A stretch of 64,000 bases of DNA, taken from contig CAWKAR010000028.1 of NCBI GenBank assembly GCA_963847625.1, positions 64,001 through 128,000 on the forward strand, written 5' to 3'. The stretch's first letter is position 1. Each line of letters opens with the position of its first letter. Both the position numbers and the translations under genes were made by a program. A model generated the notes under the pieces. It saw only the letters and a list, made by a program, of their open reading frames with translations. It did no database searches and had not been told where the DNA came from. The stretch comes from a candidate division FCPU426 bacterium. GTDB lineage: Bacteria > Oederibacteriota > Muellerivitia > Muellerivitales > Muellerivitaceae. Positions 6,194 through 64,000 of this stretch are shown piece after piece.

Positions 6194-8674
6194 ATGCCCG
6201 TGATAAACTCTCCTTACAAATCCAACCGAGGCCTTTCCATCCGAAAAACTCTTTTTCTCCTTCTCCCTTTTTTCTTTTGCGCCGGCCTGCAGGCAGCCAC
6301 GATCACTTTCACTGTGGATACGAGTGCTCCCGTATCGGTCATCCCTCCTTATTGTTATGGTTCCAACAATATCATCACCAACAATCCAACCACTCAGACA
6401 ACCCCGACAATCACCCTGGTTAATAACATTCCCCTCTATCGGCAGGGCGGCAACCGCCTCACAGCATACAACTGGGAAAATAACGCCTCCAACGCTGGCA
6501 TGGATTGGGGTCCCAACCATGAGGATTGGTATATGGTGCCAAACAATGTCTTGCCCCCGGGTATGCCGGCAACAACCTTGACTTCTTTCATCCTAAGCAA
6601 CAACGCCGTCCTGGCCGCTTCCCTGGTCACTCTGCAAATGGCCGGTTATGTCTCGGCCGACGGCAACTGCAACTGCGACGTGACTGTCACCGGGGCGGCG
6701 GACACTAGCGGCACCTATTGGAAGACGGTCAGCTTCACCGGAGGCCCTTCTTCGGGCACCCCGGTCACTACCGATAATGTGGTTTACATGGACGAAGCGA
6801 TGCACTATCTGGTGAACAGCGTCGGATCCGCCGGGAGGGGGGGAGCCCTCTTTTACGACTTGGACAACGAGCCGGGCATTTGGAACGGCACCCATCCTCT
6901 CGTCCATCCCGCCCAGGCCGCTTGTTCCGAAGTTGCCGGTAAAGGAGTCAGCCTGGCCACAGTGATTACCTCCATCGATCCGGGAGCCCAGGTCCTGGGA
7001 CCGGTTGCTTATGGCTGGGGAGAATACACCAATAACCAAGGTGCGCCGGATGCCGTTAATCTTTCTTCCTACGACAATGGCAACTATATTCCCTACTTGA
7101 ATTATTACCTGGCCACGATGAACACCGCGTCCAGTTCTGCTAGCCGGCGGCTTTTACATTACCTGGACCTGCATTGGTATCCTGAGGCGACTGGAAACGG
7201 AGTACGCATTACCAACGATGATACCAGCCAACTGGTCGCCATTGCCCGCATGCAGGCACCTCGGAGCCTTTGGGACCCCACTTATACTGAAACCAGTTGG
7301 ATCGCCCAAAACTCACTTCCAAACTCCCCCATCACTCTCATCCCCCGCCTCCAAGCCGCGGTCAGCCAATATTATCACGGGACAAAACTATTCTTTTCGG
7401 AGTACCAATACGGGTCCGGCGAGGACATATCCGGCGGGGTAGCCCAGGCGGACGCACTGGGAATTTTCGGAAAGTACGGGGTAGGAGCCTGCCGGTGGGA
7501 CGACGGCACCAACAACGCCTATGTCGGCGCGGCTTTCAACCTCTACTTGAACTATAACGGGGCCGGGGCTGGTTTTGGGGACCTTTCAATGCCCCTCTCG
7601 GTTCCCAGTGCCAGTATCGCCCTGGCTTCCGGCTACGCCTCGCGAAGCAATTCCCAACCCAACAAAATCTGGATCGTGGCCATCAGCCGGAATTATTCCT
7701 CGGCCTCCGTCACGGACACCGGAAGTTTCACACTTAACAACCTGTCGGGTGGCCAAGGCATTTCCTCGATCAAGTCTTACCGGTTTGACTCTACCCATTC
7801 CACCCTTTACAGTCCAGTCGCGCCCGTCACGACCTCGGCGACCAGTTTTACCGACAACCTCCCGGGACGTTCCGGCACCCTCTATGAAATCACCCTGAAC
7901 CAAACCTTTATCACCTTCACCCCTTCACCCACCGCCACTTCCATGGCAACACCCACCAAAACACCCACCCCCACCAATTCTCCAACGCTTACCCGGACCC
8001 ACACGTTCACGGCAACCCTGACCCCTAGCCAGACCAAAACTTCAACAATCACTCCTACTCTAACGATTACAGCGGTCATGCTTACACCGGCGATCACCTT
8101 GACTCCCACCGATACCATCAGTCCCACTCCATGGCCGACAGGTGTTCCCACATATACTTATACCGACACTCCGACTGCCACAGATACTTTGACGATAACG
8201 AGCACTCCGACGAGCACTCCGCCGCCGACCATCACCTGGACCCAAACCGACACTCCGACCTTTACAGACACCTTGACGGCGACGAACTCACCAACGAACA
8301 CCCCGTCGCCGACTTTCACCTGGACCCAAACCGAAACCTATTCCCCCACGGCGACGTCCTCGCCAACCCTCTCAATGACCCCCACCCCCAGTTGTTTTTA
8401 TGTCGGTATGAACGTGTTTCAACCCAGCCAGGCGCCCGTCACCATCAGTTTCTGCCATTCAAATTCGGGTCATTATTCCCTGAAAATTTACAATTCAGCC
8501 GGTGAGCATATTAAAACCTTTCTCGACGGGCACATCGGAGTCTCACCAGCCTCCCAGACTTATCTTTGGGACGGGACGAACAAAGACAACGACGAATGCG
8601 CCAGCGGGGTTTATTTACTTAAGCTTTCCAAACCCAATGGAACACAGTGGAAGAGGATCATCCTTATCAAATAG
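6194..8674 (+). CDS. Secreted GH44 endoglucanase/xyloglucanase with Thr/Pro linker and C-terminal FlgD-Ig/T9SS-like domain (subtype B)
   Basis: GH44 motifs RQGGNRLTAYNWENNASNAG, YDLDNEP, LDLHWYPE, MQAPRSLWDPTYTETSWI, FSEY. Signal peptide ending LQA. Tail SLKIYNSAGE...WDGTN...CASGVY. Confidence 0.9.
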   Translation: MPVINSPYKSNRGLSIRKTLFLLLPFFFCAGLQAATITFTVDTSAPVSVIPPYCYGSNNIITNNPTTQTTPTITLVNNIPLYRQGGNRLTAYNWENNASNAGMDWGPNHEDWYMVPNNVLPPGMPATTLTSFILSNNAVLAASLVTLQMAGYVSADGNCNCDVTVTGAADTSGTYWKTVSFTGGPSSGTPVTTDNVVYMDEAMHYLVNSVGSAGRGGALFYDLDNEPGIWNGTHPLVHPAQAACSEVAGKGVSLATVITSIDPGAQVLGPVAYGWGEYTNNQGAPDAVNLSSYDNGNYIPYLNYYLATMNTASSSASRRLLHYLDLHWYPEATGNGVRITNDDTSQLVAIARMQAPRSLWDPTYTETSWIAQNSLPNSPITLIPRLQAAVSQYYHGTKLFFSEYQYGSGEDISGGVAQADALGIFGKYGVGACRWDDGTNNAYVGAAFNLYLNYNGAGAGFGDLSMPLSVPSASIALASGYASRSNSQPNKIWIVAISRNYSSASVTDTGSFTLNNLSGGQGISSIKSYRFDSTHSTLYSPVAPVTTSATSFTDNLPGRSGTLYEITLNQTFITFTPSPTATSMATPTKTPTPTNSPTLTRTHTFTATLTPSQTKTSTITPTLTITAVMLTPAITLTPTDTISPTPWPTGVPTYTYTDTPTATDTLTITSTPTSTPPPTITWTQTDTPTFTDTLTATNSPTNTPSPTFTWTQTETYSPTATSSPTLSMTPTPSCFYVGMNVFQPSQAPVTISFCHSNSGHYSLKIYNSAGEHIKTFLDGHIGVSPASQTYLWDGTNKDNDECASGVYLLKLSKPNGTQWKRIILIK

Positions 8675-8847
8675 ACGGATTTCATCCGAAAGACCTCGGA
8701 GACCCCTCGTTGCTTCGGTCTAACCCTTCCCGGCAACAGTTGCCCTTTACCTGTGTGGCCTCCTAAACATGTCCCTTCGTGCTGCTTTTCTTTTTTTAGA
8801 AAGCCCCTTAAAATTACCTTTCTTTGATTCCAAGCGGTGGAGAGAAT

Positions 8848-17319: not shown

Positions 17320-19926
17320 TCACCTCAAGATTAGCCATTTTCCTTTGCGTCGGTCCCCCAGGGACGTCGTAACGACCACGTAATAAAGCCCATCGGCCAA
17401 AGATTTTCCCCATTGGTCAATCGGGTCCAGCTTCACGCTTACGCCCGGCGAAACGGCCGGAAACTTTTTATCTAGGACCTTCCTAAAAGACGTGGTAAAG
17501 ACTTCCACTTTCACATCCGCGGTGCTTTTAAAAGGCACGAAAATCCTCAAGGGGCCTTGGTCCTTCAAGGGGTTGGGGTAGATCAAGGGAAGGCCAGGAC
17601 CCGGCACAGGCAGAAAAGTGTTCGTGGGGGTGGGGGTGGCCGTGGGAGTGCAGGTATTTCCAGGATAGCCACAGGGGGTAGGGGTATCAGTCGGGGTGGG
17701 CGTCGGGGAAGGCACCACGCCATAGATGTAGCCCCTTCCGCCCGTGGTTAAATAAACCCGGCTGAAGACGATTTCGTCGCCAGCGATATAGTTGTTCTGG
17801 AGCCATCCGTATTGGTGCTGGTCGTCGTTGATCCGGACCCAGGTGGTACCCACCCCGTCGTCACAGCGGTAAAAACCGTATTGCCCGTTGACCGAGCCAA
17901 TGATGAAAACGGCCGGGTGGGTCTTGCCTGGCGCTGGCATACCGAATCCCACTCCCCAAGCGTTTGAAACGCTGGATATGGTGTTTTGGGCTGTCCCGGC
18001 CCCGGTGAACTGGTAGAGGTTTCCCCCGTTGGCCGCCACCCAAACTTCACCGGGTTCCCCAAAGCAAGCCCGGGGGACCCCGCTTCCGTAAAAGGAATTG
18101 ACTGCGGCAAAATTAGTTGCGCTGTTACTGCTGACGTACAGGGTTCCTCCACTCGTGGCGTAAAAAGTGGAAGGGCTAGAACGGTCCGAGGCAAGCATGG
18201 CATTGCTGGGCAAGCCGCTGGAGGTGGTCCAGCTGGAACCATTGTTGGTTGAAAAATAAACACCGCTGTTGGTGGAGAGGACGATAACACTTCCATCCGC
18301 GGCCACCGCGACCGACTCGGACCGCGAAGCATCCGGGGCTTGGGAGGAAAAGGGCGTCCAGGTCTGCCCATTGTCAGTGGAGTAAGCGCCGTATTGTCCC
18401 GTATTGCCGCTCCCCCTGGTCCCGATACGGGCCACGAGATTGGGGTTGTTCTCGGCAAAATCCAGGCCCACAGTGTTGCTGAAAACGGGATTGGTATACA
18501 TGCCACCCGTAGCGGGCGCCGTGAGGCTGTCATTCCTCATTCCGCCGATGTCCCCCACGGCGCTGAGAAAGGCCCCCTTGACGGAGCCGGGCAGGAAAAG
18601 AGGTACTGTTTCCTCAAGTCCCCGGTCCAGGAAAGACCAGGTCACCGACTGGGGAACATTCGAGGCTTGGATGTCGGTGCTCACGAAAATGCCCTCGCCC
18701 GTGCCGTAAAAAGCCCGGTTGGAGTTGAAGGGGTCCAGGCACACCGCCTCCACCCAGTTGGTAGCATTGGTTCCTACAAAGTTTCCTCCGAAATAAAGCC
18801 ATTGGATCCCGTTCACGAGGTATTGTGAGGGATTGCTGGTGTAGCCGGTGGGGGGTAGGGCGATGACAGTCCAATCGGTCCCTCCATCCGCGGTGGATAA
18901 AATCCTATCCGGAGCGTACCAATCCAATGTGGAAACAATGGCGTGCTGGGGGTTTCGGGCGTCCACGCTGATCCCTCCCGCCATTCCGCCCCAATTGGAG
19001 GAAGGCGTGACGTTGGTCCAGGAACCGGACGGCACATTGTATTTCCATACCTGGCCCTGCAGGGTTACACCTGTCACGTTATAAGGACCATAATCGTTGG
19101 AATAGGCCATCCAAAGGTTCCCGTCGCTTCCCAATGAAGCGTGGTGGGCCATCAGGCCGGAAGGCCCTCCGGGGACTTCCACCCAACTGCCCCCCCCGTC
19201 CGTGGATTCGTACAAGTTACTTCCCGCGCTGGTGCCGGATGCGGCTACAAATAGGGTTGAAGAGGCAGAACCGACAACCCCGCCCTGCCCGTCAATGACC
19301 ACCACCGGCAATCCTAGATAGGTAGTTACGCCATTAATAGTTATAGCGGCTCCTTGAGTGGGAAAGCCTGTCACCACATTCCAACTGGTGCCAGAATCAA
19401 CGCTTTTAAAAAGGCCGTATTCCCGGGAGCCAAAATAAAGAATGTTGTCGAGGTTGGGATCTACCGCCAACCGTTCCCCCATTCCCCGTCCCACATCATT
19501 ACCGCCCATGGGCGCATTAATATTATTCACGGTCCAACTGTTTCCCTGGTCGGCGGATCTGAGAATGACCCCATAGCCCGCGGTTTCATACATTCCACCC
19601 GCGACGTAAACAATATTGGGATCGACCGGATCCGGCGCGATGCTCTCAATGCCCAAGTAATTCCCTTGGCTCATGGAAAACATATCGGTCAAGGGGAGCC
19701 AAGTGGAGGTGGAATCATCCCAGCGGTAGGCCCCGCCCACATCCGTGCGGGCATAAAATAACCCCTGGGAAACCGGACTGGCCACGATACCGTCCACGAA
19801 ACCACTGCCCATGATGGCTACGTTGTTCCAGGAATAGCTTTGGCCTAGGGCATTGGAGCATACCAAGCCCATCGGCAAAAGAAGGAGGACACAGAGCTTA
19901 ATGTTTAGTAATTTGGCAGTTTTCAA
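17320..19926 (-). CDS. Secreted GH74 xyloglucanase/endoglucanase with Thr/Pro linker and C-terminal T9SS-like domain (subtype A)
   Basis: GSGFVDGIV, YARTDVGGAYRW, GGNDVGRGMGERLAVDPN, SAVGDIGG, BNR repeats (STDGG.SW), W.RINDDQHQYG. Tail YPNP...FTTSFRKV...GLYY...KWLILR. Confidence 0.92.
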   Translation of the reverse strand: MKTAKLLNIKLCVLLLLPMGLVCSNALGQSYSWNNVAIMGSGFVDGIVASPVSQGLFYARTDVGGAYRWDDSTSTWLPLTDMFSMSQGNYLGIESIAPDPVDPNIVYVAGGMYETAGYGVILRSADQGNSWTVNNINAPMGGNDVGRGMGERLAVDPNLDNILYFGSREYGLFKSVDSGTSWNVVTGFPTQGAAITINGVTTYLGLPVVVIDGQGGVVGSASSTLFVAASGTSAGSNLYESTDGGGSWVEVPGGPSGLMAHHASLGSDGNLWMAYSNDYGPYNVTGVTLQGQVWKYNVPSGSWTNVTPSSNWGGMAGGISVDARNPQHAIVSTLDWYAPDRILSTADGGTDWTVIALPPTGYTSNPSQYLVNGIQWLYFGGNFVGTNATNWVEAVCLDPFNSNRAFYGTGEGIFVSTDIQASNVPQSVTWSFLDRGLEETVPLFLPGSVKGAFLSAVGDIGGMRNDSLTAPATGGMYTNPVFSNTVGLDFAENNPNLVARIGTRGSGNTGQYGAYSTDNGQTWTPFSSQAPDASRSESVAVAADGSVIVLSTNSGVYFSTNNGSSWTTSSGLPSNAMLASDRSSPSTFYATSGGTLYVSSNSATNFAAVNSFYGSGVPRACFGEPGEVWVAANGGNLYQFTGAGTAQNTISSVSNAWGVGFGMPAPGKTHPAVFIIGSVNGQYGFYRCDDGVGTTWVRINDDQHQYGWLQNNYIAGDEIVFSRVYLTTGGRGYIYGVVPSPTPTPTDTPTPCGYPGNTCTPTATPTPTNTFLPVPGPGLPLIYPNPLKDQGPLRIFVPFKSTADVKVEVFTTSFRKVLDKKFPAVSPGVSVKLDPIDQWGKSLADGLYYVVVTTSLGDRRKGKWLILR

Positions 19927-20352: not shown

Positions 20353-21900
20353 ATGAAAAAACAACAAAATGATTTACCTGAAAAACAACCTGTAATATCA
20401 AGAAAAGGTTTCATGGGATTTTTTTTAATGATGGGTCTTATTGTGGTTTCTTTTAAACCAATCCAAGCTCAAACTATTAATTATTGTAATACACAAGGTA
20501 GCCAATACTTTTGGTACACCACAAATTCCCCTTCGTATGCAGTGGAATTCAATTATTGGAATGGAAGCTGCCCTGGCACTCAATGCATGAATGTAAACAC
20601 CGCAACCGGGGATTTTTCCGTGACGGAATTTACAGCCAGTTGCGGTAACAATGTTGCCACTTATCCAGCTATCTACTATGGCAATCATTTTACGAACCTT
20701 AGCAACAATGCAAATATACCAATGCTACTTAGCGCTGTTACCTGCGCCACAAGCAGTTGGAATTATACCGTCAACATGGGAAACTATGACGTGGCCTACG
20801 ACATCTGGTTCAGCACTAGCGCCACTAATATAACCACTAGCGGTTATCCCGGCGGGGCCGAGTTGATGATTTGGTTGAATTCCAACAACGCCTATCCCTC
20901 CGGTGGTACTCCGAAGGCCACCGTCACTCTTGACGGGTATACCTTTTATGTTTATGAAACAATCAGTGGATCAGCGCCCAATACTTGGACCTATATCGCC
21001 TATGATCCCATTGGCCCCATCAACGGGGGTGTCACCAACTTGAATCTCTTGGCATTTTTTAACGATGCCGAATCCCGCATAGATAGCACATCAGGCAAGC
21101 CATACATCAGTACATCCTGGTACCTCGCTGATATCGAGGCAGGGATTGAAATCCACTCGGGCGGATCTACCTTCAATTACACCAGTTCCGGTTTTTCGGC
21201 TTATGTCAACAGCGGCTGCGGCACCGGGCCTACCTACACCTTTACTCACACTGGGACGATGACCAATTCCCCGACACGCACACCTTCACCAACCATAACC
21301 CGCACCTCGACCCCGACCCCAACACGCACTTTCACAGGAACATCCACCCCCACCCCAACAACCACAGTCACTCCAACTGTCACCAATAGTCCCACACCAT
21401 GGCCGACCAATGTTCCCACCTTCACTCCCACGAACACTGCAACAGATACCCTAACCATGACACCCACTGCTACACCAACCATTACCAATAGTCCCACACC
21501 ATGGCCCACCGGTATACCTACATTCACTCCCACGGACAGCCCAACCATGACACCCACTGGAACGAACACTCCAATTCCCCTCCCAACCTCCACATCCACC
21601 AACAACGGTCCAGCCCCTCCTTGCGTCAACCTATTCCCCAACCCCTTGAAAGGGGATGGATATACAAATATTAGTATTTGCCCATCGGGTCACCCGTACG
21701 TCGGAAGAGTTACAGTTTCTGTATTTACAGTCGCCTTCAGAAGAGTGGCAGGATGGGATATCCCTGCATGGACACCGGGAAATGATATCCAGCTTCCTTC
21801 CTTGGACCTGGGGGGAGTTCCCCTCGCCAATGGACTTTACTATGTCGTAGTAGATATGTCCGGCAACAAAACTGTCCTGAAGTGGCTCATTTTCCGTTGA
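20353..21900 (+). CDS. Secreted GH12 endoglucanase with Thr/Pro linker and C-terminal T9SS-like domain (subtype A)
   Basis: [35 protein letters not shown] (both catalytic Glu positions); signal peptide ending IQA. Confidence 0.9.
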
Positions 21901-24341: not shown

Positions 24342-27300
24342 TTGAGACATTCTTTCCTCCAATCGTTTACCTTCAAATTTCTCCTCATTTCCGCTTTATT
24401 GGCGGGCTTCCTTCATGTTTCAATCCAGCCGGCGGAAGGCCAAGCCGCAGCCAGTTGCTCCCAGTACGCAAGTTGGACCTGCGGGTCCTACATCATGCAA
24501 ACCGATTTTTGGAACTTGACTACTTGCGGTGGCACCCAGTGCGTTACTCTGGATACCTCAACGGGAAACTTCGGAGTCACGGAAGGCCCCGTTACATGCG
24601 ACCCCAACGTGGCTTCCTGGCCTGACATTTACTATGGAAGTCATTATGGAACCGCCAGTCCCGGCACCAACCTGCCCATGTTGGTCAGCGCAGTTACCTG
24701 TGTAACCACAAGCTTTAGTTATACACCCACCTACACCGGAAGCTGGGACGCTGGCTACGATATTTGGTTCAGCACCACTACCAACACGACTAACGGATAC
24801 GCCGGCGGTGCCGAGATAATGCTTTGGTTGGGTTATATGGGGGATACGCCTCTACCCGCGAATTCCGTGACGGTGGTTACAGGATTATCCCTCGCCGGTT
24901 ATTACTGGAATCTTTATGAAACCCCATCCGCGACTCTCGGTTGGACTTATATGTCCTACCAAGCGGCCACTTCCTCGGGGGCCCCTGCCACCATCACTTC
25001 CATCACTAATTTGGACCTTCTCGCGTTCATCAATGATTCCGTCTCCCGCGGCTATGTCAAAACCACCTGGTATCTGGCCGCGATCGAGGCGGGAATCGAA
25101 TTGAGGAGCCTAGGGATTCCATTCACCGCCAGCGGTTTTAATGCCCATGTCAACAGCGGCTGCGGCAGTGGTCCCACGCCGACCTTCACGGGTTCCATTA
25201 CCCGCACGCCAACGAATACGTCAACCATGACACGCACCAATACGGCAACACCAACCCCCACCTCAACCGTAACAAGGACGAATACGCCGACCAATACCTT
25301 TACGACTACCCCTTCGCAAACGGCAACTCCTACGTCAACGGCAACCAGGACAAACACGCCGATCAATACAGCCACGAACACCTCGACTTTGACAACGACG
25401 CCTACGTCAACTGCAACAAGGACGAACTCGCCCACCAATACCGCCACGACTACGGCAACCAGGACAAATTCGCCGACCAATACGGTCACGGCTACGGGGA
25501 CCCCGACCTCAACAGCAACCAGGACGAATTCACCTACTAATACAGTCACCCCTACGTCAACGAACACGTCCGTGAACACGCCAACGAATACCTCTACGTC
25601 CACATCCACCCCGACCAGGACAAACACACCAACCAGCACACTTACAAATACATTGACGAATACGCCCACGAATTCGACGACCTCCACATCAACCCCAACC
25701 AGGACTAACACACTGACCAGTACACCTACAAATACATCGACGAATACACTCACGAATACGGCAACTTCCACACTAACCCCGACCCGGACGAATTCGCCGA
25801 CTGTTACGATTACAAGTACGTCGACGAATACGTCTGTGTACACACCAACGAACACCTCTACGCCCACGAATACGGCGACCTCCACATCCACCCCGACCAG
25901 GACGAATTCGCCGACGAATACACCCACGAACACGGCAACTTCCACATCCACCCCGACCCGAACGAATTCTCCGACTGTTACGATTACAAGTACGTCGACG
26001 AATACGTCTGTGTACACACCAACGAACACCTCTACGCCCACGAATACGGCGACCTCCACATCCACCTCGACCAGAACGAATTCGCCGACTGTTACGATTA
26101 CAAGTACGTCGACGAATACGTCTGTGTACACACCAACGAACACCTCTACGCCCACGAATACGGCGACCTCCACATCCACCCCGACCAGGACGAATTCACC
26201 GACGAATACACCTACGAACACGGCAACTTCCACATCCACCCCGACCAGGACGAACACGCCGACCGTTACGATCACAAGCACGTCGACGAATACGTCCGTG
26301 TACACGTCCACGAACACCAATACGCCCACGAACACAGCGACCCCCACGTCAACCCCGACCAGGACAAACACGCCGACCGTTACGATCACAAGTACGTCGA
26401 CGAATACGTCCGTGTACACGTCCACGAACACCAATACACCCACGAACACGGCAACCCTCACGTCAACCCCGACCAGGACGAACACGCCGACTGTTACGAT
26501 CACGAGTACGTCGACGAATACGTCCGTGTACACGTCCACGAACACCAATACGCCTACGAACACGGCAACCCTCACGTCAACCCCGACCAGGACGAACACG
26601 CCGACCAGCACGCCCACGAATACGACGACCTCAACGAACACTCTGACCCGGACATCCACACCAACGCTGACGAATACACCTACGCCGACGATAACGTCCA
26701 CGGCGACCAATACCAGTACAGGGACTCAGTCGCCCACGTCCACGGCGACTAATACGCCTACTGTCACCAATACGCCTACAAATACTAATACTCTAACCCC
26801 GACGAACACACCGACGCGGACCTCCACGCCCACAGCCACACCCACGCCAACGAGTACACCCACGAATACTCCTACGAACACCTCGACGCGGACATTCACG
26901 TCCACGGCCACAAATACGCCGACGAATACCCCCATTAACACACCAACTTTCACGCCAACACCCACCCCGACTACCACACCTACTCCCACTTCGACGAACA
27001 CACCCACGAGGACGCCTACGTCCACTCCGACCCCCACACCGACGCCAACCAATACGCCCACCAACACGCTTACTCCCACCCCCAGCCCGACTGGGACGAC
27101 ATCGCCCACTGCCACCCCGACCAACACTCCCACGCGCACAAACACACCAACTTCGACTTCCACGCCCACGATCACATTTACGCCAACCCCAACCAATACC
27201 CCAACCAACACACCGACTTCCACACCAACCCCCACGACCTGCGTCACCCCGACGCCGACACCTACGAACACCCCCACGAACACGCCGACAAGGACCTCCA

Positions 27301-29024
27301 CAGTCACACCCACGCCAACAAGTACACCCACGAACACGCCAACGAATACTTTAACCAGCACCAGGACGAATACGCCCACAGACACACCGACAATGACGAT
27401 CACCAATACGCCGACGGTAACGTTCACGGTAACCAATACCAGCACAGGGACTCAGTCGCCCACGCCCACGGCGACCAATACACCCACGGTCACCAATACG
27501 CCGACCCATACCGCGACACCCACACTGACGAACACATCGACTTCTACGCTAACCCCGACGATGACGCCCACATCGACTCGGACACCGACATCCACGTCCA
27601 CAAACACACCGACCAACACGCCAACGAATACGCCAACGTCGACCGGAACAAGCACAGCAACGAGGACGCCGACTTCCACATCGACTCCGACGATAACGCC
27701 GACGCCGACCCCGACGGTGACAATTACGCCGACGAACACACTGACACGGACATCCACGTCCACAGCCACAAACACGCCGACGAATACACCCACCAACACA
27801 CCCACACTAACGAATACTTTAACCAGTACCAGGACAAGTACGCCGACCAATACACCTACGCCGACGATAACATCCACGGTCACCAATACCAGCACAGGGA
27901 CTCAGTCGCCCACGCCCACGGCGACCAATACACTCACGGTCACCAATACGCCGACCTGTACAGCGACACCCACGACGACTAATACGCCCACAGTCACCAA
28001 TACGCCGACCCGAACACTTACCAACACACCCACGAACACACCCACGCCCACAGACACCAATACTCCGACCCCGACTTACACCTCCACGCCGACGCCCACC
28101 CCAACGCCGACCAACACACTTATTTCCACCCCGACGCCCACGAGCACATCCACGAATGTTCCCACGAACACGTCTACTGCGACATCAACCCCCACCAACA
28201 CCCCGACTGTCACGTTAACCCCGACTCCAACACCTATGACCTTGCAAGTTTCACAGGGTGCTTCACCCCCTTCAAATTCGATCCAAGCACCCGGCGCATC
28301 CGGTGTGACGGTGCAACAGATCCAAGTGACGAACCCAAGCAACAACCCGGTGACACTCACCAGCCTCGTTTTGTCGGATACGGGGAATGCTTCCACGGAC
28401 GTCACGTCGGTAACGCTGTGGGAGAATGGTGTGTCGATTACCAGCGCGACGTTTAGCGGGACAACAGCGACGCTCAACTTGAACAATATCGTTGTACCGG
28501 GAAATGGGAGCGTGACATTTGAGATTACGGCCGCGATTTCATCCGCGGCCATTGGGACAGACACGGACTCATTCAGCGTAACGGGCATATCGGGAAACAA
28601 CGGGCAGTCCACCCATGCCAACGGATTACCAGTCCAAGGGGCGATCATTACGATCATGGCTCCAACTGACACCGCGACTCCGACCAGCACGCCGACGGCC
28701 ACCTCGACTAATGTTTCTTCCCGAACTTCGACACCCACGCCCACGGCTCCGGCCACCCTGGTGGTCTATCCCAATCCCCATTCAGGGCCCGGGTCCATCT
28801 TGGTCCTACCGCCCTACCGGGGCTCCTCCAACGTCAGGGTCGAGATTTTCACGACCGCTTTCCGAAAGGTCCAGGACAAGCAATACAATGACATTCCATC
28901 GGGACAACCTGTTTCACTGGATCCCACGGACAGGTGGGGCAAACCCTTGGCCAACGGCATTTACTATGTCTACGTGCAAACCGGCCAGGCCCACTGGATC
29001 GCCAAACTTCTCATCATGAACTGA
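24342..29024 (+). CDS. Giant secreted GH12 endoglucanase with ~1000-aa Thr-rich linker, Ig-like domain and C-terminal T9SS-like domain (subtype A)
   Basis: [37 protein letters not shown]; clear paralog of 20353..21900. Tail VYPNP...FTTAFRKV...LANGIYY. Confidence 0.9.
25170..28240 (+). repeat. Coding low-complexity/tandem-repeat region (Thr/Pro/Ser/Asn linker)
   Basis: Near-identical ~120-bp units encoding TPTRTN(S/T)[16 protein letters not shown]... at about 25770-26600; the block [11 protein letters not shown] occurs three times. Confidence 0.9.
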
Positions 29025-37858: not shown

Positions 37859-37952
37859 GAATAATAGTATATCAAGTACATACGGATGTCAAGGGGATAA
37901 TCGCCTTTTATTATATCGTTTATATGTTTGGCTGTTGAACGGGGATTTACCT

Positions 37953-39989
37953 ATGCCGATAAATCAAAACCGACACCTCACCAGGTATATTCTTCTTATA
38001 TTTCTAGCCTTTTCAGTAAAACCTTGCTGGGCTTTAACGGCCGGTAACCAGGGTATGGATTTCTGGCTGGCCTTTCCGGACAGCTACAACAACACGATTA
38101 ATGCCACCGCAAAACAATTGTTGGTCACCAGCTTGAACTCGGCTGCCGGAACGGCCCAGATTCCCGGCCTTTCCATTTCCGTTCCCTTTTCGGTGCCGGC
38201 AGGGGGCATGACCGTTGTGACTCTCCCTCTCACCGCCAGTGTCACGCAGCTGGACGGCGTATCCCAACAGGGAATCCATCTGACGGCGACCAATAACGTC
38301 GCGGTTTTCGGTTTGAATTACATTCCCGCCGCCACCGACGGCTACCTGGCCCTTCCCACGGACGCCCTGGGCGTTACTTACATGGTTTCGACATACCAGG
38401 TGGATGACCTCGACACCTCTCCCACCGTCGACAACGGTTATTCCCTCTTCACGATCGTGGGGGCGGTGGACTCCACTTCGGTGACCATCACCCCCTCGGT
38501 GACCGTCGGTTCCAGGACCGCCGGTATCCCTTATGTTATTACTTTGAACTCAGGGGATACTTACCAGCTGGCGGCCACGAATATGGGGGACGACTTGAGC
38601 GGCAGCACGATCGCCTCAAGTAATCCGGTCGCGGTGTACGGGGCCAATGTGGCCGCCTATATGCCAACCAGCGTCTACCAGGCGGCCAACAGCCTGGTGG
38701 AACAACTCTGGCCCCTTTGCGATTGGGGTTTGACTTTTTTCACCGCGCCTTTGGCCACAAGATCGAACGGGGACACGATCAAGATCACGGCCTCCGCGAA
38801 CAACACGAATGTCTTCCTCAACGGCACCCAAGTGGCGGTCCTGAACCAGGGCCAGGTTTACCAGCAGGAAGTAATCGTGGCCTCGCAAATCACATCCAAC
38901 AACCCGATTTACGTGGTGCAGTATTCCAACAGTTCCACCTTTGACAACAACACGAACGCCGACCCCAGCATGATGTCCATTCCGCCCGTAAACGATTTTG
39001 ACACGGGATACCTGGTGGCCGCGCCCGTCACCGGAGGGGCCATTACAACCCCCTTCTCCAGCTACGAGAATATCGTCGCTCCCTCGGCGGTCGTGGGTTC
39101 CATTTACCTGGACGGAACCCTCATTCCCACTACGGTTTTTTCTGCCATCGGCTCCAGCGGTTACTACAGCGCCGTTGTGCCCGTGCCACCCGGCCCCCAT
39201 CAGTTGACCGGGGACGGAGTGACCCGGTTCGGGGTGGTCGCCTATGGTTTCGGCTTATATAACCCCCCCGCCAATCCCGGCTATGACGCCTACAGTTATC
39301 CCGGCGGGCTTGTCCTCTGCTCCAACCTTCCCACTCCGACCCCCACGCCCACGAGGACCCCCACTTCCACGCCGACGGTGACTGTGACCCCGACTATCAC
39401 GCTCACTCCCACGCCTACGAACTCGCCAACCATTACATCGACGTCCACCGCGACGCCGACCCCGACGGACACCCCGACCCCCACGATCACCGACACCCCA
39501 TGCGGATATCCCGGCCTCACCTGCACCCCGACGATCACCTCGACCTCCACCTCCACCCCCACCGGCACTCCAACGCCGACCGTAACCGACACCCCGACAT
39601 TCACTTCCACTCCGGCCTCCACGGACACTTCCACCCCGACTTCCACCTCTTCGGCCACTTCCACCCCAACGAACACTCCGACTGCGACAAACACTCCCAT
39701 CCCCGAATGCTTTTACGTCGACAAGAACGTGTTTCAATCCGGCCAGGCGTCCGTTACCATCACTTTCTGCCTGCCCAATGCGGGTAATTATTCCTTGAGA
39801 ATTTACAACTCGGCCGGGGAGCATATTAAAACCCTGGCCGACGGTTACTTCACGCCCTCCTCCTCCTCCCAGGCCTATCCCTGGGACGGAAAGAACAAGT
39901 ACGGCGATACTTGCGCGAGCGGGGTTTATCTCATTTACCTGGTCACACCCGTCGAGAAAAAACTCGCCCGCGTACTCTGGATGCATTGA
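37953..39989 (+). CDS. Secreted IgGFc-binding-protein N-terminal-like domain protein with Thr/Pro linker and C-terminal FlgD-Ig/T9SS-like domain (subtype B)
   Basis: [37 protein letters not shown]...WG, ADPSM, YSYPGG. Tail [10 protein letters not shown]...WDGKN...CASGVY. Confidence 0.85.
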
Positions 39990-48827: not shown

Positions 48828-48828
48828 A

Positions 48829-49914: not shown

Positions 49915-50173
49915 TAGTTGTCTCGAATAAATTCGTTAAAACATTATTTTTCAAAAACATATATGCGTGTTCGGAATTAGGTCTGAAAAAAGAAAAATCA
50001 TCATCAGACCAAAACCAAATCATATTATGCCACCATTCATACCAGTTAGGACTGAGGTACCCGAAGTAAGAAACTAAAACTTGAGATTATGGATAAACCG
50101 ATTCCGATTTTGTGCTATTTTTGGCGTATAAAAAATTGGATATTATCTTTATAGATAGGTAAACAAATGAAAT

Positions 50174-51225: not shown

Positions 51226-51227
51226 AA

Positions 51228-53782: not shown

Positions 53783-54835
53783 ATGCGCCGATTCTCTATT
53801 AACCAAATATCTAAAAAGGAAATCGGTGCCATACCGATCACTTTAAAAGCTTCATGGAAGATAGGCATGCGCCATTCGTTATTAACCCTGGGTTCCGGCT
53901 TCATCCTCCTGGTTTTACTGTTGGTATTCCCCCTGGCGTGCAGTAATAAATCCACTGTCGCCATCATTCGTTTCACGCCCCAAACACCAACGCCGACGGC
54001 CACCACCACCCCCACGGTCACCACCACCCCCGCGGTGACCATGCCCTCTTATGTCAACCAATGGTCCTTTGGCAGTGGATTCCCGATGGATATGGCCGTC
54101 AACGGGTCAACGCTTTATTTAGCCGCTTGTAGTTATGATTTCGAATTGTTCAACCTGGGCAACCTGTCCACGCCCGTCAACACCTGGAGCGGATACGGAT
54201 CCACGGTCTTTGCTTGGGTCCAGGGGGTCGCGGTGAATCCGTTAAACGGCAATGTTTATGTTTTGGATTACGGAGCCGATACGGTTTATCAATTTACCTC
54301 CGCGGGGGCGGCGGTGAACGCCTCGACCTACCCGTTTAATAACCCCTATGATATCGCGACGGATTCCAGCGGTAATTACTATGTCCCTGATATGGCCAAC
54401 GCCGCGGTATATGAATTTAACCCGAGTAACACGCTTCTCAAAACCTGGACTACCGCGGGGCCCAACGCGTTTGTATGGCCCTCGGCGGTGGCTTTTGATT
54501 CTTTGAACAACATTTACATCGCCGATGCCAGCGCCGAAAAACTTTATGAGCTGCAGGCAGGGACGAACACCTTGTTGAACACCTGGTCGTTACCTAATTA
54601 CGCCTTGTTTTATCAAATGGCGATCAACGGCAGTGGCCTCGTCTATGCCCCGGATTTCAATAACCAAATTGTGGAGGAATTTATCCCGGGGACCTCGGGC
54701 CCTGTCACCACCTGGAACGGTTCGCAGGGCGGAGGCACGGCGTTCACGGGGCCTGTGGGCATTGTCATCCTCCCGAACGGAAACATCCTGGTGTCTGATT
54801 ACTATTCCGACCTCCTGGAGGAATACTCCCCCTGA
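53783..54835 (+). CDS. NHL-repeat beta-propeller lipoprotein with short Thr/Pro linker
   Basis: Lipobox PLAC; repeats FNNPYDIATDSSGNYYV, F.WPSAVAFD..NNIYIAD. Alternative start at 53867. Confidence 0.85.
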   Translation: MRRFSINQISKKEIGAIPITLKASWKIGMRHSLLTLGSGFILLVLLLVFPLACSNKSTVAIIRFTPQTPTPTATTTPTVTTTPAVTMPSYVNQWSFGSGFPMDMAVNGSTLYLAACSYDFELFNLGNLSTPVNTWSGYGSTVFAWVQGVAVNPLNGNVYVLDYGADTVYQFTSAGAAVNASTYPFNNPYDIATDSSGNYYVPDMANAAVYEFNPSNTLLKTWTTAGPNAFVWPSAVAFDSLNNIYIADASAEKLYELQAGTNTLLNTWSLPNYALFYQMAINGSGLVYAPDFNNQIVEEFIPGTSGPVTTWNGSQGGGTAFTGPVGIVILPNGNILVSDYYSDLLEEYSP

Positions 54836-54977
54836 CCCAGGCCGCTTGGTTTCCCGTGGTTGAGCCCGATTCCCCAAAAAACGTTCCTCGGAGGTAAAAT
54901 GTCCCCACCATGGTTTTTATGGGTTTACATCAAGGGGCTGTTTTTAAAATAAAATTTAGTCTCAGTGGTGGTTGTTC

Positions 54978-56285
54978 ATGAAATTCAGGATTTTAGGGAT
55001 TCTTTTTCTTGCCACCACCGTTTCAACGGCGATCACTAGTTGCTCCAACACCAACAACCCCGCCTGTCCCATCGCGCAGGCACCGACCCAAACCGCCGCT
55101 ACCACCCTGATGCCAACGGCCACGCCCACCAATACCATGTCCCCCACCATCACCCATTCCCCTACTGTGACCAATTCCCCCACCGTGACGATGACCCCGA
55201 CCTCCACCCCCACGGACACCTCCTCGCCCACCCCCTCGATTACCCTGACGCCCACGGACAGCCCCACCGTTACAAACTCTCCCACCTTCACCAATTCCCC
55301 TACCATTACCAACACCCCCACGGAAACCCTGACGCCCACCGACAGCCCCACCGCTACAAACTCTCCTACCATCACCAATACTCCTACGGTGACCATGACC
55401 CCGACCCAAACATCAACCCCGACGGCCACAAGCGCCACCACGGAAACTTCGACCCAAACATCAACACCAACATCCACCGCCACCTTTATTCCCACACCCT
55501 CTTACGTCAATCAATGGGCCTTTACCGATTTATATCCGAGCGCGATGGCCCTTAACGGTTCAACGCTTTATGTTCCCGATGGATCTGGTGTCGACTTGTT
55601 CAACCTGAGCGATCTCTCCACAGTCACCGCCCCCTGGACCGGGTATGGGACAACAACCTTCGTCAATACCTACACGGCGGCTGTGAACCCGGTGAACGGC
55701 AACGTTTATATTTTGGATTTTGGCGCCGGTATTGTCTATCAGTTCACTTCCGCCGGGGCAACGGTGAACGCCTCCACCTATGCGTTCAGTAACCCCGAGG
55801 ACATCGCGACGGATTCCAGCGGCAATTACTATGTCGCGGATATAAATAATAACGAGGTGGAGGAATTTGACTCGAATAACACATTGCTAAACACTTGGAC
55901 TTCCGCGGGGAGTAACCCCCTTTATCTCCCGATGGCGGTGGCTTTGGACACCTCAAACAACCTTTACATCGCCGATTACGACAACGGGAACGTTTATGAA
56001 TTACAGGCGGGAACGAACACCTTGTTAAATACCTGGACGTTGCCCAGCGGCGCCATTGTTTTCCAAATGGCGGTCAACGGCAGTGGCTTGGTTTACGCCG
56101 CGGATTATCAAAACATGCTTGTGGAGGAACTCAGCCCCGGAATGACAGCCCCGGCCGTCACCTGGAACGGCTCCCAAGGCGGAGGCACGGCGTTTTCGGA
56201 ACCTGACGGGATTATCATCCTTCCGGGCGGGAATATCCTGGTGGCCGATTACCTCCTTAGCATCCTGGAGGAATATTCCCCCTGA
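54978..56285 (+). CDS. NHL-repeat beta-propeller lipoprotein with long Thr/Pro linker (paralog of the preceding gene)
   Basis: Lipobox ITSC; ~140-aa linker; propeller colinear with 53783..54835; both end LEEYSP. Confidence 0.85.
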   Translation: MKFRILGILFLATTVSTAITSCSNTNNPACPIAQAPTQTAATTLMPTATPTNTMSPTITHSPTVTNSPTVTMTPTSTPTDTSSPTPSITLTPTDSPTVTNSPTFTNSPTITNTPTETLTPTDSPTATNSPTITNTPTVTMTPTQTSTPTATSATTETSTQTSTPTSTATFIPTPSYVNQWAFTDLYPSAMALNGSTLYVPDGSGVDLFNLSDLSTVTAPWTGYGTTTFVNTYTAAVNPVNGNVYILDFGAGIVYQFTSAGATVNASTYAFSNPEDIATDSSGNYYVADINNNEVEEFDSNNTLLNTWTSAGSNPLYLPMAVALDTSNNLYIADYDNGNVYELQAGTNTLLNTWTLPSGAIVFQMAVNGSGLVYAADYQNMLVEELSPGMTAPAVTWNGSQGGGTAFSEPDGIIILPGGNILVADYLLSILEEYSP

Positions 56286-58691: not shown

Positions 58692-61600
58692 TTACTTGAT
58701 GAGGATTATTTTCTTCCACCTGGTTTGATGGGGTTCGGTTAGCGCAAATATATAAACCCCGCTGGCACAGGGGTCGCCATTTTGGTTGGTTCCGTCCCAA
58801 AGATAGGAATGGGTATAGGTGGACTTGAGGTAATGGTCATCCAATGTTTTGACCAGTTCACCGGCCGAGTTGTAAATTTTCAGTGAAAAGGGGCCGGGGG
58901 GGAGGATATTGCCGGCAAATAGTGAAATAGGACCCTGCGCCGGTTGAAACAAGTTCTTGCCGACGTAAAAAACGTCAAAAGCAGGGTTAGGGGTGATGGT
59001 GGCCGTCGGAGTAAAGGTCATCGTGGGGGAGGGCGTCATCGTGTAAATCCTCAGCGACACACAACCCGTCAAGGGGCTGGACCCCGCATGGTTCATCACA
59101 GCGCAATTCACGATAGAAGCCGCCGTCGTGGAACTGTCGATACTCACAACATAGGTCAGCAGGTAGTTCCCTGGAGTCAGGACAGGAAGGGTCCAGGACA
59201 TCGTTGTCACGCCGCCCGCCACGTTCAACGAGGTGACAGTTCCCGCCGGAGAAACCCCGAACATCATGAAACTGCAGTTGGCCGGAAGAAGATCCTGCAC
59301 CACCACCCCTGCCGCGGTGTTGTTCGTCACGCTCAGGGTCAAGGTATAGGTCACTTGGTCCCCCGGCGAGCCTATCACCTCCGACTCCTGCTTTTGGAAT
59401 GCCATCGTCACCGCGAGCGTGGGAGTGCCCGTCGGGGTAATAGTCGGGGTATTGGTGATAGTGGAAGTATTGGTGACCGTCGGTGTAGGCGTTATCGTTG
59501 GAGTTTTAGTGGCCGTCGCGGTGTTGGTCGGAGTGGGGGTGAAAGTGGGGGTGGGGGTGTAGCTGGGGCATGGGATCCCCGGACAGGGACAAAATTTCAA
59601 TACCTCCCCGTCGCTCGGGACGCACAAGTACCAGGCTCCCGCTCCGATGGCGATTCCCTCGGTGTCGGTGGCGTCGAGCATCTTGGTGGAGAACCAAACC
59701 CCGGTGGAAGGGTTCAAGACCCCGATGTCGCCGTACGCGTCGGAAACGTATATATTCCCCGTGGAATCCACCTCCAGGTAATTGGCGGCCCAAAGGTCCG
59801 TGCCCTGCGTGACATCCCACTGGGTGATCGGACCGCCGTTCCAGGTGAATTCCTGGATCAACCCCGTGTAAAAATCCGCGGCATAAACGTTCCCGGACGA
59901 GTCCAAAGCCACGCCCATGGGCTCCTCCAAGGTTCCTCCCCAGCCGAACCCGGCGGAACCCCACTGGGTCTGGGGATTCCCGGCGGAATCGAATACCGCC
60001 ACCCGGCTGTTGTAGCAATCCGTGACGTAAACGCTGGTCCCGGCCGAGTTGACCGCCACACCCTGGGGGAAGTTGAAGGTCACGCCCCCGTAACCCGACC
60101 ATTGGGTGACGAAACTCCCGTTCGCGTTCAATACCTGCAACAGGTTGTTCCCGGAATCCGTGACGTAAACCCTCCCGCTGCCGTCCACCGCGATCCCGGT
60201 GGGCGTGTTGAATGTCCCGTGACCTGTCCCCGCCCCGCCCCAATGCGTGACGGCATGGCCCAGGGTGTCGTAAACATAAACCAAATTATCGTTGGCGTCG
60301 GTGACGTAAAAATTCCCCGCGCCGTCCAGCGCGACGTCCAGGGGCGAATTGACATTATAGGAAACCACGGGGCTGCAAAGAGACGGCGAGGACGGGGTCG
60401 CGGTGGGGATGGGGGCGACCGGCGTCGGAATCGCGGCCTTGAGGTCCACCAGGTCGTTGATCAGATTCTGCCCGGCCGGGCTTCCCCAGCCTGTGGCGAG
60501 GTCATAGCCTTTCACGGCCAGGAAAAACACCGTGTTGCGTCCGTCCCAGTTGTTGTTGCTTCCATCCGCGATGTCGTGGAAGTCGGCGAGGTAATTCGGG
60601 CCCAGGCCCGCGGCGTAAAGGGAGGGATTGGCGAACCCCACCGTCACGCCCGCCGTGGCCGAGGCTTGCTGATTGACGAGAGCCATGAAACCCGCCCATA
60701 ACGGGGCCGCGGCGCTCGTTCCGCCCGTAAAGGAGGACTGGCCGGCGCAATAAATGAAGATGTTGTCGGCGACCATGGAAACATCCGGGATATTCCGCCA
60801 CAGGATCGAACCGCCGTTCAAGCCCATGGGAACGGCGGCCTGGTAATTGGGGATCCCGAGTAGGCCCGCGCAAATCCCCCCCGCGCTCGACCCGAAAGCC
60901 GAGTTCCAGGACGATTCCGTGGAATAGGAAACCGCGGGGGGGGAACCCGACGCTGAAATCCACAATTGGGTACCGCCCGCGCACGTGATATAGGGACTCA
61001 TGGATCCAGGTGGGCTCATAGCCGGCCATACATCCCCTCCCCCGAACGCGCCGTAATCCCCCGATGCCAGGAAAAAAGACTGGCCCTGCGCCGCGAACTG
61101 CGCCAGCAGGTTCACGGTTGTGGAATCCCCGAACCCGCCCCAGGAACAACTGATCTCCGGGCAGAGGGGGGAGCGGCCATCGCGGCCAGGATGTCATTGG
61201 AGTAGGCGTCGAAGGTCCCCGGTGTGTCAGGCGCCTCGTAAACCTTGACCTGGGCCCCCGGCGCCATGGAAATCACCATGTCGATATCCAGGGTCACCTC
61301 GTTTTGATCGCCCTGATCGGTCGGAATCCCGTTAAAACCGTGCAACAGGACGGTCACGGGAACAGGCGCCGAGAAGGAAGGGGTGGAGGTGCTTTCGTAT
61401 AGAAGGACATCGGAAAGGGAAAATCCATTGATTTCGAACAACCCGACCGTTTGCCCCGCGCCGTTGAGGGCCGCCGGCACATCCGAAGCATAGGCATTCC
61501 GGAAGTCCATCCCCTGGTAATTCCCCAAGGGCCCCGTGCCCAGGCTTTTCCCCGGATCGGCGGCCCTTTTCGCGGCGATGTTTGGCGGATAAATGACGAG

Positions 61601-62212
61601 GTTATGCCGGGGCCGGTTGAAATTGTCCAGGCCCGACGCGTGAAGGATCGGGATGCCCGGGCCCGCCGTCGGTTCCCGGTCCGGGGCATAGAAAAGGGTT
61701 CCATCCGGCCGGAAATGGGTGACAAAGTTGACGTGAAACGCCCTTCCGACGTCCCCCACGGTTCCTTCCACGTCCACCAGCATCCGGGAAGGATAGGTTT
61801 TCACCACGCGCAGGCCGTTGGCTTGGGCGAAGTCCTGAACGGCTTTGTACTCGCTTTCGGCCGGGCCGAACTTTTCGGTGAATTCCCCGGGGGACAAGAA
61901 ATGCCGGTATTGGGGGCTCTGGGGATCGTAGAGTTTCTTTAAAACCTGCTGGAGGGCGGCGGTATTTTTCAGTGGAAGCCCAAGTGCTAATTTTAAACGC
62001 CGGGAGGAAGGCAATGTCCCCTGAACAGGCATAGAGGCCCATTCCTTTTTCAAATGGACATCCATGGGCCCTTGACCATAAGCCGGGGCTGGGCCGCTGA
62101 GCGCTGACAATAGCGGGATCACCGCAAGGGGAACCGCGATGGCGCGGCGCAAATAGGGACAAATGCTGTTTGAATTCATATTACCTTTATCCAATAAAAG
62201 AACCGGCGCCAA
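58692..62212 (-). pseudogene. Secreted S53 (sedolisin/kumamolisin) peptidase with NHL propeller, Thr/Pro linker, DUF11-like domain and subtype-B C-terminal domain, split by one frameshift
   Basis: ORF 61112..62212 has the signal, pro-domain (LYDPQSPQYRHFLS..EF..KFGP) and EVTLD. ORF 58692..61115 has ASGD, GGT, PDVS, GGTSAAAP, GYDLATGWGSP. The frames join at the G6 tract 61166-61171. Confidence 0.85.
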
Positions 62213-62340
62213 CCCATTGATAAAATCATACCCGGAAAGAAGACTTTTTAGGCGGTTTTTTCCCTGAAGGGTCGTTCTTTGAATCCGCGTTTAGAAATGT
62301 ATATTTTCGGGTTGCCGTGGTTGAAAGATTTGGGCCAAAA

Positions 62341-64000
62341 TCAGCGGAGAACGAGGACTTTCAATATGGTTGTCCCCATGACCGGGCCGTCAACTTGGAC
62401 CCGTATATAGTAAAGCCCATCAGCCACCGGCTGGCCCCAGCAATCTTCCAAGTTCCAAACTAGGGTGGCATCTTTGCCGGTAACGGGATTGGAAACATCC
62501 AGGATCTTGCGGAAAGCCGTGGTAAAGACGCTCCATTCGACCGTGGAAAAGGTTGGGAACCGCAGCCGGATAGAAACGGGCCCCGCGCCCTGGACGGGGT
62601 TGGGATAGGGCGGCCCGATTACAACACCCGCCACAGTCGAGGTTGGGGTAAGAGTGGAAGTGAAAATTGGAGTTGAAGACAGTGTCGGTGTCGGGCTTGG
62701 GGTGGCGGTCGGACTTGCGGTGAGGGTGACTGTGTCGGTCACAGTGGCCGTCCCAGTCTGTGTTGCAGTGGCTGTTGGGATCTGGGAGGCTGTCGCGCTA
62801 GGAGTCATCGAATCCGTCGAGGTGTTCGTAGGCGTGCTGGTGGATGTGGAAGTCGGCGTATTGGTGATGGTGGGAGTGGGGGTTGGTGTGGGTGTGATCG
62901 TCATCTTCGGCGTAAGCGTAGGTGTGTGAGTGGGTGTGGATGTCATCGTTGACGTGGGCGTACTGGTGGGGGTCCGGGTAATGGTCCACATCATAGTAAA
63001 TGAGTTTGTAGGGGTCATCATCCAATTCGTGGGCGTCATTGTAGCCGTTAGCGTGTTCATGAACGTGTTCGTCGGCGTGAATGTGTTGGTCGGTATAGAA
63101 GAAGTGGAGGTGGGTGTCGGGGTCGCTGTGGGCGTCAGAGTGGGTGTATAGGTATAGGTAAAGGTATAGGTGAAAGTTTCGCTGAATGTCGGCGTGAATG
63201 TATCCGTTGGCGTCGACGTGAGCGTAAGCGTCGGTGTATTCGTAGAAGTAGCTGTCGGAGTGTTGATAAGGGTAATCGTACCGGTAGGTGTTCTCGTCGA
63301 TGTGGGGGTGTTCGTCGGGGTCGGGGTCTTCGTGGGCGTTTGGGTCCAGGTCGGCGTGCGTGTATTGGTCAGCGTGCGCGTAAGCGTCGGCGTGAGTGTC
63401 GGGGTCAAAGTGCGGGTGTCAGTAGGGGTTCGGGTTAACGTCCAGGTCAGGGTGGGGGTTGGGGTTTCCGTCTGAGTTCGGGTCAATGTCAGCGTGATCG
63501 TCGAAGTGGACGTACCCGTACTGGTTGCAGTCAACGTACTCGTAGAAGTGGGCGACGCGCAAAAGGGGCCGCAAGGCGAGAAAGTAAACGTTGGGGTTGG
63601 TGTAAACGGAACATGGGTCGCGTTGGGATTGCAGTAATTCGAACGGGTGAAAATCCCATTGCTTCCATAACCCCCATATTCATCGCCTTGGCCCCCGGCA
63701 CCACCAGAAATCAAAGCGGAACCGGTAAAATTATAGCTGCTCAAAATGCAAAAAGTAATGAATCCCCCGCTGCCGCCGCCGCCGCCAAAAGCGTCAAAAT
63801 CATCGTCAATTCCCGATTTTCCTCCATTCCCACCTATCACACTGATTACACCAGTACCCACAATTCTACTTGCGCTGATATTAACCGTTCCACCTGAACC
63901 GCCTCCGGCGCCGTTTGAAGAATCCCCAGATCCGCTAATAGTACAAGAAGCACCGGCCGTACCGCTAAAATCCAATGTTCCATTCAAGACTACTGTGCCG
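62341..64000 (-). CDS. Gly-rich protein with Thr/Pro linker and C-terminal T9SS-like domain (subtype A); 5' end outside the window
   Basis: Frame is open to base 64000; [16 protein letters not shown] motifs, long Thr linker, tail PYPNP...FTTAFRKI...VADGLYY...KVLVLR. Confidence 0.85.

Follow-up and report, generated by a model that had tools for sequence, protein, structure and literature searches.

C-terminal tail domains in a candidate division FCPU426 genome: probable signals for export by a reduced outer-membrane pathway resembling the T9SS

Seven unrelated proteins encoded within 64,000 nucleotides of DNA from a candidate division FCPU426 bacterium (assembly GCA_963847625.1, contig CAWKAR010000028.1, positions 64,001 to 128,000; the whole of this stretch is called the window here) end in a similar domain, or tail, of two subtypes, A and B, which raises the question of what these tails do and what machinery they serve. 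An earlier note on this DNA proposed that they are sorting signals like those that a type IX secretion system (T9SS) uses, and this proposal is supported by a fold resembling those of PorU and PorZ, by the exclusion of tails from lipoproteins, and by SprA and PorV homologues in the genome. Our observations concern the tails, models of their fold, gene content and gene order, and we conclude, with a probability of roughly 0.78, that these domains direct export through a reduced outer-membrane pathway that works like a T9SS.

Each of the seven window tails is about 92 residues long, has the motifs that the note gave for its subtype and ends at the stop codon, and the 35 residues preceding it are 43–63% threonine plus proline, as the note's description of a Thr/Pro linker implied. 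Subtype A tails terminate a GH74 xyloglucanase-like protein with a Thr/Pro linker (17320..19926, reverse strand; tail at ~17320-17598), identified through its similarity to xyloglucanases of solved structure (best E 6e-141), and two GH12 glycoside hydrolases on the forward strand: GH12a, with a stalk (20353..21900; tail at ~21622-21900), and GH12b (24342..29024; tail at ~28746-29024), which has a very long Thr/Pro stalk and an Fn3-like domain, and is recognised as a GH12 protein only once the stalk is removed. The fourth, described previously as a Gly-rich protein, does have its tail but makes up only the final third of a secreted beta-propeller protein of 1515 aa, whose open reading frame (ORF) runs beyond the window (62341..64000, reverse strand, comprising a Gly-rich domain, a stalk and the tail at ~62341-62619); the representative of its N-terminal cluster consists of DUF7948 and an SBBP propeller. 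Subtype B tails are found on a GH44 glycoside hydrolase with a Thr/Pro stalk (6194..8674, forward strand; tail at ~8396-8674), on a stalked IgGFc-binding-domain protein (37842..39989, forward strand; tail at ~39711-39989) whose real start is probably an internal Met near residue 38, and on an S53-NHL protein. Family matches bear out the assignments of the GH44, GH12a, IgGFc-binding and NHL cargo.

In the assembly the S53-NHL gene is interrupted by a frameshift, which lies near 61165-61170 within a run of C residues. Its N-terminal part (61112..62212, reverse strand) encodes a signal peptide, a pro-kumamolisin domain and the N-terminal protease half, and its C-terminal part (58692..61115, reverse strand) the other protease half, an NHL propeller, a DUF11 domain and the tail (~58692-58970); the closest homologue, in a genome of the same genus (77%), is an uninterrupted 1071-aa frame, and relatives carry several intact paralogues of the S53 protease gene. 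The note counted six complete genes with signal peptides; the signal peptides were judged by eye (a crude hydrophobicity test discriminates poorly, with a 55% background), and five of the genes are complete. Two NHL lipoproteins with a short Thr/Pro linker (53783..54835, forward strand) and a Thr/Pro stalk (54972..56285, forward strand) are indeed tail-less, neither giving a match to the tail models, and provide an internal contrast.

The genome-wide census that had been proposed shows that the window is one part of a much larger set. Hidden Markov models (HMMs) built from the four A and three B window tails alone find 44 and 51 domains in the genome respectively, and all of these end no more than 10 residues from the C-terminus; after iteration, 122 of 125 and 120 of 140 domain matches lie within 10 residues of it. 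Because the seed models find terminal domains only, and the tail model of a further class ('other') matched no reversed decoys, these domains are not chance matches. After iteration there are 126 tailed ORFs (32 core A, 40 core B, and 54 other, a class that takes in fragments and three predicted anti-sigma factors), which together occupy 411,549 bases, or 9.3% of the assembly. Internal copies of the tail consist of tandem repeats just ahead of the C-terminus in nine proteins and one fusion to PorV. We note also that tandem immunoglobulin (Ig)/FlgD-like domains end nine proteins as a third tail class with near-identical ends (C37:10864-15915, C37:17334-22922 and C49:83183-96881, among others).

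All 32 A tails have a P[ND]P motif and a lysine at position -6, while in B tails this position is arginine in 38 of 40 and lysine in the other two, 37 of 40 have C[AS][SN]G, and only one has PNP. A disulfide role for the subtype B cysteine is not indicated, because the cysteine is not invariant and a modelled PorV carrier has none.

Tailed cargo is mixed. Besides the GH44 and GH74 enzymes of the window, it includes GH5, 8, 9, 12 and 30 enzymes, an esterase, proteases of families S8 and M12, and also propellers and lectins, as seen in 20 representatives of the 55 N-terminal clusters (chosen among the first 28). A tail and a lipoprotein anchor hardly ever occur together: by our own lipobox rule, one of 89 tailed Thr/Pro-rich ORFs is lipoprotein-like, versus 30 of 44 tail-less ones (p 5e-18). 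None of the seven window tails matches a carbohydrate-binding module family. Because the tail is common to very different cargo and is excluded from lipid-anchored proteins, we infer that it behaves like a sorting signal rather than a carbohydrate-binding module. Five further ORFs have a long Thr/Pro stalk and a tail-less end (C25:593-3400, C33:137512-143760, C39:246295-250770, C41:776-6073 and C50:134899-139170); several run into an out-of-frame repeat, and are likely to be broken within repeats.

AlphaFold predicts a seven-stranded sandwich for both subtypes, with pLDDT values of 94.3 for B and 89.5 for A. The best fold match in the PDB is PorZ (5m11) for B, and PorU (6za2) followed by PorZ for A, and the nearest Atlas clusters are Por_Secre_tail/FlgD_ig, with a score of 0.96. 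Comparison with the curated families, which the note had recommended, puts the tails at their edge. TIGR04183 matches 8 of 14 A tails and 4 of 13 B tails at E 0.01, and most tails score at or below the cut-offs for T9SS C-terminal domains; for example, the GH44 tail alone scores 26.6 on TIGR04183 (cut-off 23) and 27.2 on PF13860, the FlgD Ig-like family (cut-off 27), and the GH74 tail, at 22.8, falls 0.2 bits short of the former. On PF13860 the B tails range from 26.7 to 34, the window tails reach only 17.5–23.9 on CHU_C (cut-off 27), and none of the seven passes the cut-off of PF18962. Two window tails have no Pfam match whatsoever, and the GH12a tail by itself has none at E 0.01. Both tails are best described as divergent type-A-like T9SS C-terminal domains.

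The note recognised no secretion machinery within the window, which is correct, and homologues of SprA and PorV are encoded elsewhere in the genome. The SprA homologue is a 2013-aa protein on contig C45 that scores 236 bits on TIGR04189 (cut-off 200); a homologue search with it reaches named SprA proteins, and its alignment with a Bacteroidota SprA is local only, at under 30% identity. Of 99 genomes of the phylum, which is distinct from Bacteroidota, 92 have SprA matches, as do 58 of the 60 high-quality ones. The gene directly after sprA in this genome encodes a tailed protein of 1580 aa, and a tailed gene directly follows sprA in 14 of 21 loci in the phylum. One genome of the phylum has a SprA identical to one labelled Ca. 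Firestonebacteria, and in a FastTree phylogeny of 32 SprA proteins, midpoint-rooted and with long branches, the phylum forms a single clade (support 99) beside proteins labelled Elusimicrobia, Spirochaetota and Nitrospirota and apart from those of Bacteroidota/Chlorobi. As far as these sequences go, vertical descent of SprA within the phylum is suggested. Placement of the organism with an Ffh tree, another suggestion of the note, was uninformative; in a tree made from 35 of the 81 rows, the window protein joined just two genomes (100/100) and no named phylum.

There are 16 confident PorV-family barrels in the genome, and 8–52 PorV-family matches per genome in each of ten genomes. Eleven of the 13 barrels scanned exceed the NF033709 cut-off, and none of the 13 passes the PorV or PorQ equivalog cut-offs. 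Ten of the 54 'other' tail genes are followed directly by such a carrier gene, versus none of the 72 A and B genes (p 1.2e-4), and an eleventh 'other' pair was recovered later; in relatives, 17 of 31 carriers are paired among the 30 best-scoring of 274 matches. Many of the paired barrels are extended with tetratricopeptide repeat (TPR), Fn3 or FlgD-OmpA domains. For A and B tails of other genomes of the family, no carrier was seen in 40 cases (with about 1.5 kb of flank, some of them near contig ends). Because no A or B gene precedes a barrel, the two subtypes are probably served by shared orphan carriers, candidates for which are three short orphan PorV genes whose synteny is kept in genomes of the family and the order; the profile of the most conserved of these matches the Flavobacterium johnsoniae PorV (6h3i_F) at 2.7e-21 and FadL at 0.0012. 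A search for PF11751 (PorP/SprF), for which no control gave a signal, found no match in the genome.

Two arrangements near carrier genes are worth recording. Genomes G043, G053 and G068, three relatives, all have a tailed gene with two tandem PorV genes directly behind it, downstream of genes that we read as flagellar hook-like. In addition, three pairs of genes that we read as ECF-sigma-like and anti-sigma-like each adjoin a cargo-PorV pair (C27:62664-64179, C22:65177-66813 and C22:77122-78338); the anti-sigma member has a terminal FlgD-Ig domain, and the arrangement possibly reflects signalling coupled to export.

We modelled the GH44 tail of subtype B on the most conserved orphan PorV. The complex scores 0.81, and the best of three controls 0.00; of 157 solved complexes 116 attain the mark used, as do 2 of 215 mismatched pairs. 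The runs share at least 92% of their contacts, with a pLDDT of at least 84 for the partners. The predicted interface includes the B invariants at 34-39, 70-73 and Arg89, and the predicted contact loops of PorV, which has no cysteine in this model, include those bearing Asn87 and Phe115 in the F. johnsoniae protein (by our own reading of the alignment, and on residues given in part of PMC10994853). The model indicates a likeness to solved complexes and is not proof that the GH44 tail and the orphan PorV bind.

Why there are two subtypes is a separate question. Both are found in all 30 genomes of the family surveyed, in each of which up to 52 candidates were scored; B gives strong matches only within the family, and A-like tails grade into other families. 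Because both subtypes occur in every family genome and strong B is confined to the family, A and B are old, stable classes. Among top-scoring matches, a biased sample, the motifs hold across genera: FT..FR in 18 of 20 and PNP in 20 of 20 for A; YN[ST]AGE in 17 of 20, C[AS][ST]G in 19 of 20 and PNP in none of 20 for B. The subtype does not follow the cargo. The window GH44, with a B tail, has a paralogue elsewhere in the genome that is 67% identical and carries A, and the 1515-aa propeller protein, with an A tail, has paralogues ~64% identical over ~780 aa that carry B; sorting of subtypes by class of cargo was accordingly rejected. With paralogues that are 63–69% identical differing in subtype, and no PorU-type protease found, the note's suggestion that the subtypes mark two fates, anchored and released, is without support.

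A plausible alternative is that A and B form a code, each selecting its own orphan PorV paralogue, with possibly different destinations. The universal presence of both subtypes in the family, the persistence of their motifs across genera, the B invariants in the predicted interface and the synteny of the three orphans all suit this idea, as do the cognate shuttles described for type B cargo of Flavobacterium in part of PMC12618676. Against it, the model covers a single pair; the same cargo families bear either subtype, the best cargo homologue having another tail class for 21 of 60 core proteins; in G043, a genome of the sister family, all three orphans are present but B gives only one weak match; carrier-tail covariation is not significant; and in Bacteroidota, according to part of PMC10994853, one PorV accepts varied tails whose conserved motifs mainly set the fold. 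We consider such a code possible, though we would not call it probable.

The remainder of a T9SS is another matter, and of the components that the note listed for a search, SprA and PorV have homologues and PorU, GldK, GldL, GldM and GldN were not detected. GldK was over its cut-off in none of 26 genomes, the best score being 72.5 against 350 bits, on generic FGE proteins; its model is sensitive enough to find unrelated FGE proteins at E 1e-20, and even a generic FGE-fold match is absent from 13 of 25 genomes of the phylum, several of them 99-100% complete. The PorU sortase (peptidase C25) was found in none of nine genomes of the order, in a search positive in 4 of 26 genomes overall. GldL and GldM were found in none of 27 genomes and GldN in none of 46, by searches that had no positive control; a sprA-bearing Bacteroidota record tried as a motor control gave no GldM match and hence no control. 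Genomes G099 and G100, reached through other loci, also have no GldL or GldM matches, and G099 does have a C25 protein. With its hub, motor and sortase undetected this is not a standard T9SS, and because neither GldK nor PorU was found we do not class it as a canonical one. The motor-less state may not be unique to the phylum; sprA without gldKLMN has reportedly been seen in relatives of Bacteroidota.

It could be argued that the system is nevertheless a complete, conventional T9SS, with ordinary type A tails, and that divergence has made its motor, hub and sortase unrecognisable or they are missing from the assemblies. The distant SprA, which PF14349 missed altogether, fits this explanation, as do the TIGR04183 matches, a Skp homologue ~7 kb upstream of the SprA homologue, and a 1013-aa TPR protein that scores 162 on the SprE/PorW model (cut-off 250; this was the single candidate scored). 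The TPR protein, however, scores higher on generic TPR models, and the absences of GldL, GldM and GldN, the sensitivity of the GldK model and the positive C25 matches outside the order all speak against it; we regard this explanation as very unlikely.

What might drive release in the absence of the known motor? The 1013-aa TPR protein lies in an operon (C45:23402-31073) with a 627-aa barrel of no NCBIfam family, ExbB/TolQ (one of two such genes in the genome), ExbD/TolR and TonB, which is a candidate energiser only. We tentatively prefer a proton-driven motor of this ExbB/ExbD/TonB type as the substitute; energy-free release and GldLM diverged beyond recognition are each somewhat less likely.

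Least credible of all is that the tails act as passive modules, Ig-like or carbohydrate-binding, with the cargo periplasmic or exported by another route and SprA and PorV serving outer-membrane biogenesis or lipid transport, since the lptF/lptG-like genes (our labels) near sprA in 13 of 21 loci, the FlgD-Ig domains in non-exported settings and the two secretins of the genome are outweighed by tails that are strictly terminal, belong not only to glycosidases but also to proteases, propellers and lectins, and exclude lipoprotein anchors, by PorV genes directly after tailed genes far above chance, and by a carrier-tail complex model that passes. The secretins both lie in pilus clusters, by our reading of their neighbours, and a type II secretion route was rejected.

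Several points nonetheless weigh against an export pathway of the reduced kind that we prefer. The genome is 94% complete, the motor searches were uncontrolled, and as PF14349 missed the SprA of this genome, diverged motor genes could escape likewise; a phmmer search of the PDB with the SprA homologue found no sequence match either. No link between the ExbB/ExbD/TonB operon and SprA is seen, and the barrel of the operon, while present in 16 of 16 family genomes, occurs in 19 of 60 overall (from a single query). The fold searches gave E values of only ~1e-4, with other Ig-like domains ranking closely behind, and the same fold forms the end of the three anti-sigma factors predicted here and an internal domain of two PorV-OmpA fusions, so that the fold by itself is not an export signal. 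The complex model may owe its pass to memory of solved complexes (PorV in 8GL6, and others); close cousins also pass, and the model does not tell which carrier is cognate. Carrier and tail distances over 33 pairs are not significantly correlated (rho 0.10, p 0.07, or rho 0.06 with p 0.20 once close orthologues are removed), and nearest neighbours agree in 15 of the 33 pairs, which orthologous pairs can explain.

Compared with the type A T9SS of Bacteroidota (references TIGR04189, NF033710 and TIGR04183/PF18962; PDB 6H3I, 8GL6 and 8GLK), the system proposed here shares cargo that is probably Sec-dependent, a terminal seven-stranded sandwich with a basic residue at -6, a SprA homologue over its family cut-off and PorV-family barrels. 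It differs in its non-Bacteroidota host, in having 16 carriers instead of a single type A carrier, none of those scanned over the equivalog cut-offs, in the undetected GldKLMN and PorU, and in a subtype B that lacks YPNP and has arginine at -6. The order of a cargo gene followed by its own carrier gene, with orphan cargo using a stand-alone carrier, is like that of the F. johnsoniae type B system, as described in part of PMC12618676; unlike that system, the paired carriers are of the PorV/PorQ family and not PorP/SprF, many are fused to TPR, Fn3 or FlgD-OmpA domains, and the tails are type-A/FlgD-like. FlgD Ig-like domains (PF13860) belong to the same fold family, and FlgD structures appear in the fold search, whereas the modules described here terminate secreted enzymes behind a Thr/Pro stalk and not hook-cap proteins. 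FCPU426 and Goldbacteria are equated in part of the text of Doud et al. (PMC7031533), which describes a cellulolytic lineage of the rare biosphere, like ours; as far as its main text goes, 'T9SS' does not occur and type IX secretion appears only in the title of a reference. A 2026 review, in the part relevant here, confines T9SS to one phylum (PMC13721041), and no description of a system such as this was found in open-access main texts, supplements aside. The contribution of the window is the pair of family-wide orphan subtypes, excluded from carrier pairing and interchanged on paralogous cargo.

We can outline how the pathway would operate. Cargo would pass the inner membrane by Sec on its N-terminal signal peptide, and the sandwich would then dock on the outer loops of a PorV-family barrel held in the SprA-like pore, as modelled for one pair and otherwise by analogy with Bacteroidota. 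Gene order suggests that rare tails use their own carrier, encoded directly downstream, and the mass-produced A and B tails, as orphans, would use one or more of the conserved stand-alone carriers. As searches gave no PorU-type protease, the tail probably escapes cutting and is not joined to lipopolysaccharide; the cargo may remain on its carrier, with the catalytic domain extended on the Thr/Pro stalk, or dissociate intact. A bolder and rather doubtful version has SprA pore, carriers and tails operating without a GldKLMN chain, an expanded PorV family forming an address code in which A and B each choose their own carrier, a Ton-type motor or none, and, if SprA descends vertically, a pore and carrier that predate Bacteroidota gliding.

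Other features of the window appear incidental to these questions. Between the two GH12 genes (21988-24042) lies a gene for a multi-pass membrane protein with TPRs, which has 17 homologues in the genome and which we take to resemble GT-C glycosyltransferases; linkage of such membrane glycosyltransferase-TPR genes to stalk genes is unconvincing (3 of 17 within 1 kb, versus a background of 34 of 546). A secreted 231-aa protein (15209-15904) has an end like that of a small outer-membrane barrel and no significant family match. Three transposase-like ORFs, by our reading one IS1595-like and two IS30-like (36986-37858, 50181-51161 and 52121-53101), surround a stretch of low GC content at 48001-52000.

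A SprA-PorV-tail system found throughout a phylum without a detectable hub, motor or sortase bears both on the energy needed for release, since release of the carrier is given as the energy-requiring step of the T9SS in part of PMC10994853, and on the order in which the components evolved. The T9SS is proposed, in the Discussion of PMC12635249, to stem from the gliding machinery, and vertical descent of SprA, if true, would contradict this. The naturally occurring carrier-tail pairs offer a ready panel for studies of signal specificity, and for a little-known cellulolytic lineage the tails may mark a route by which its enzymes are exported.

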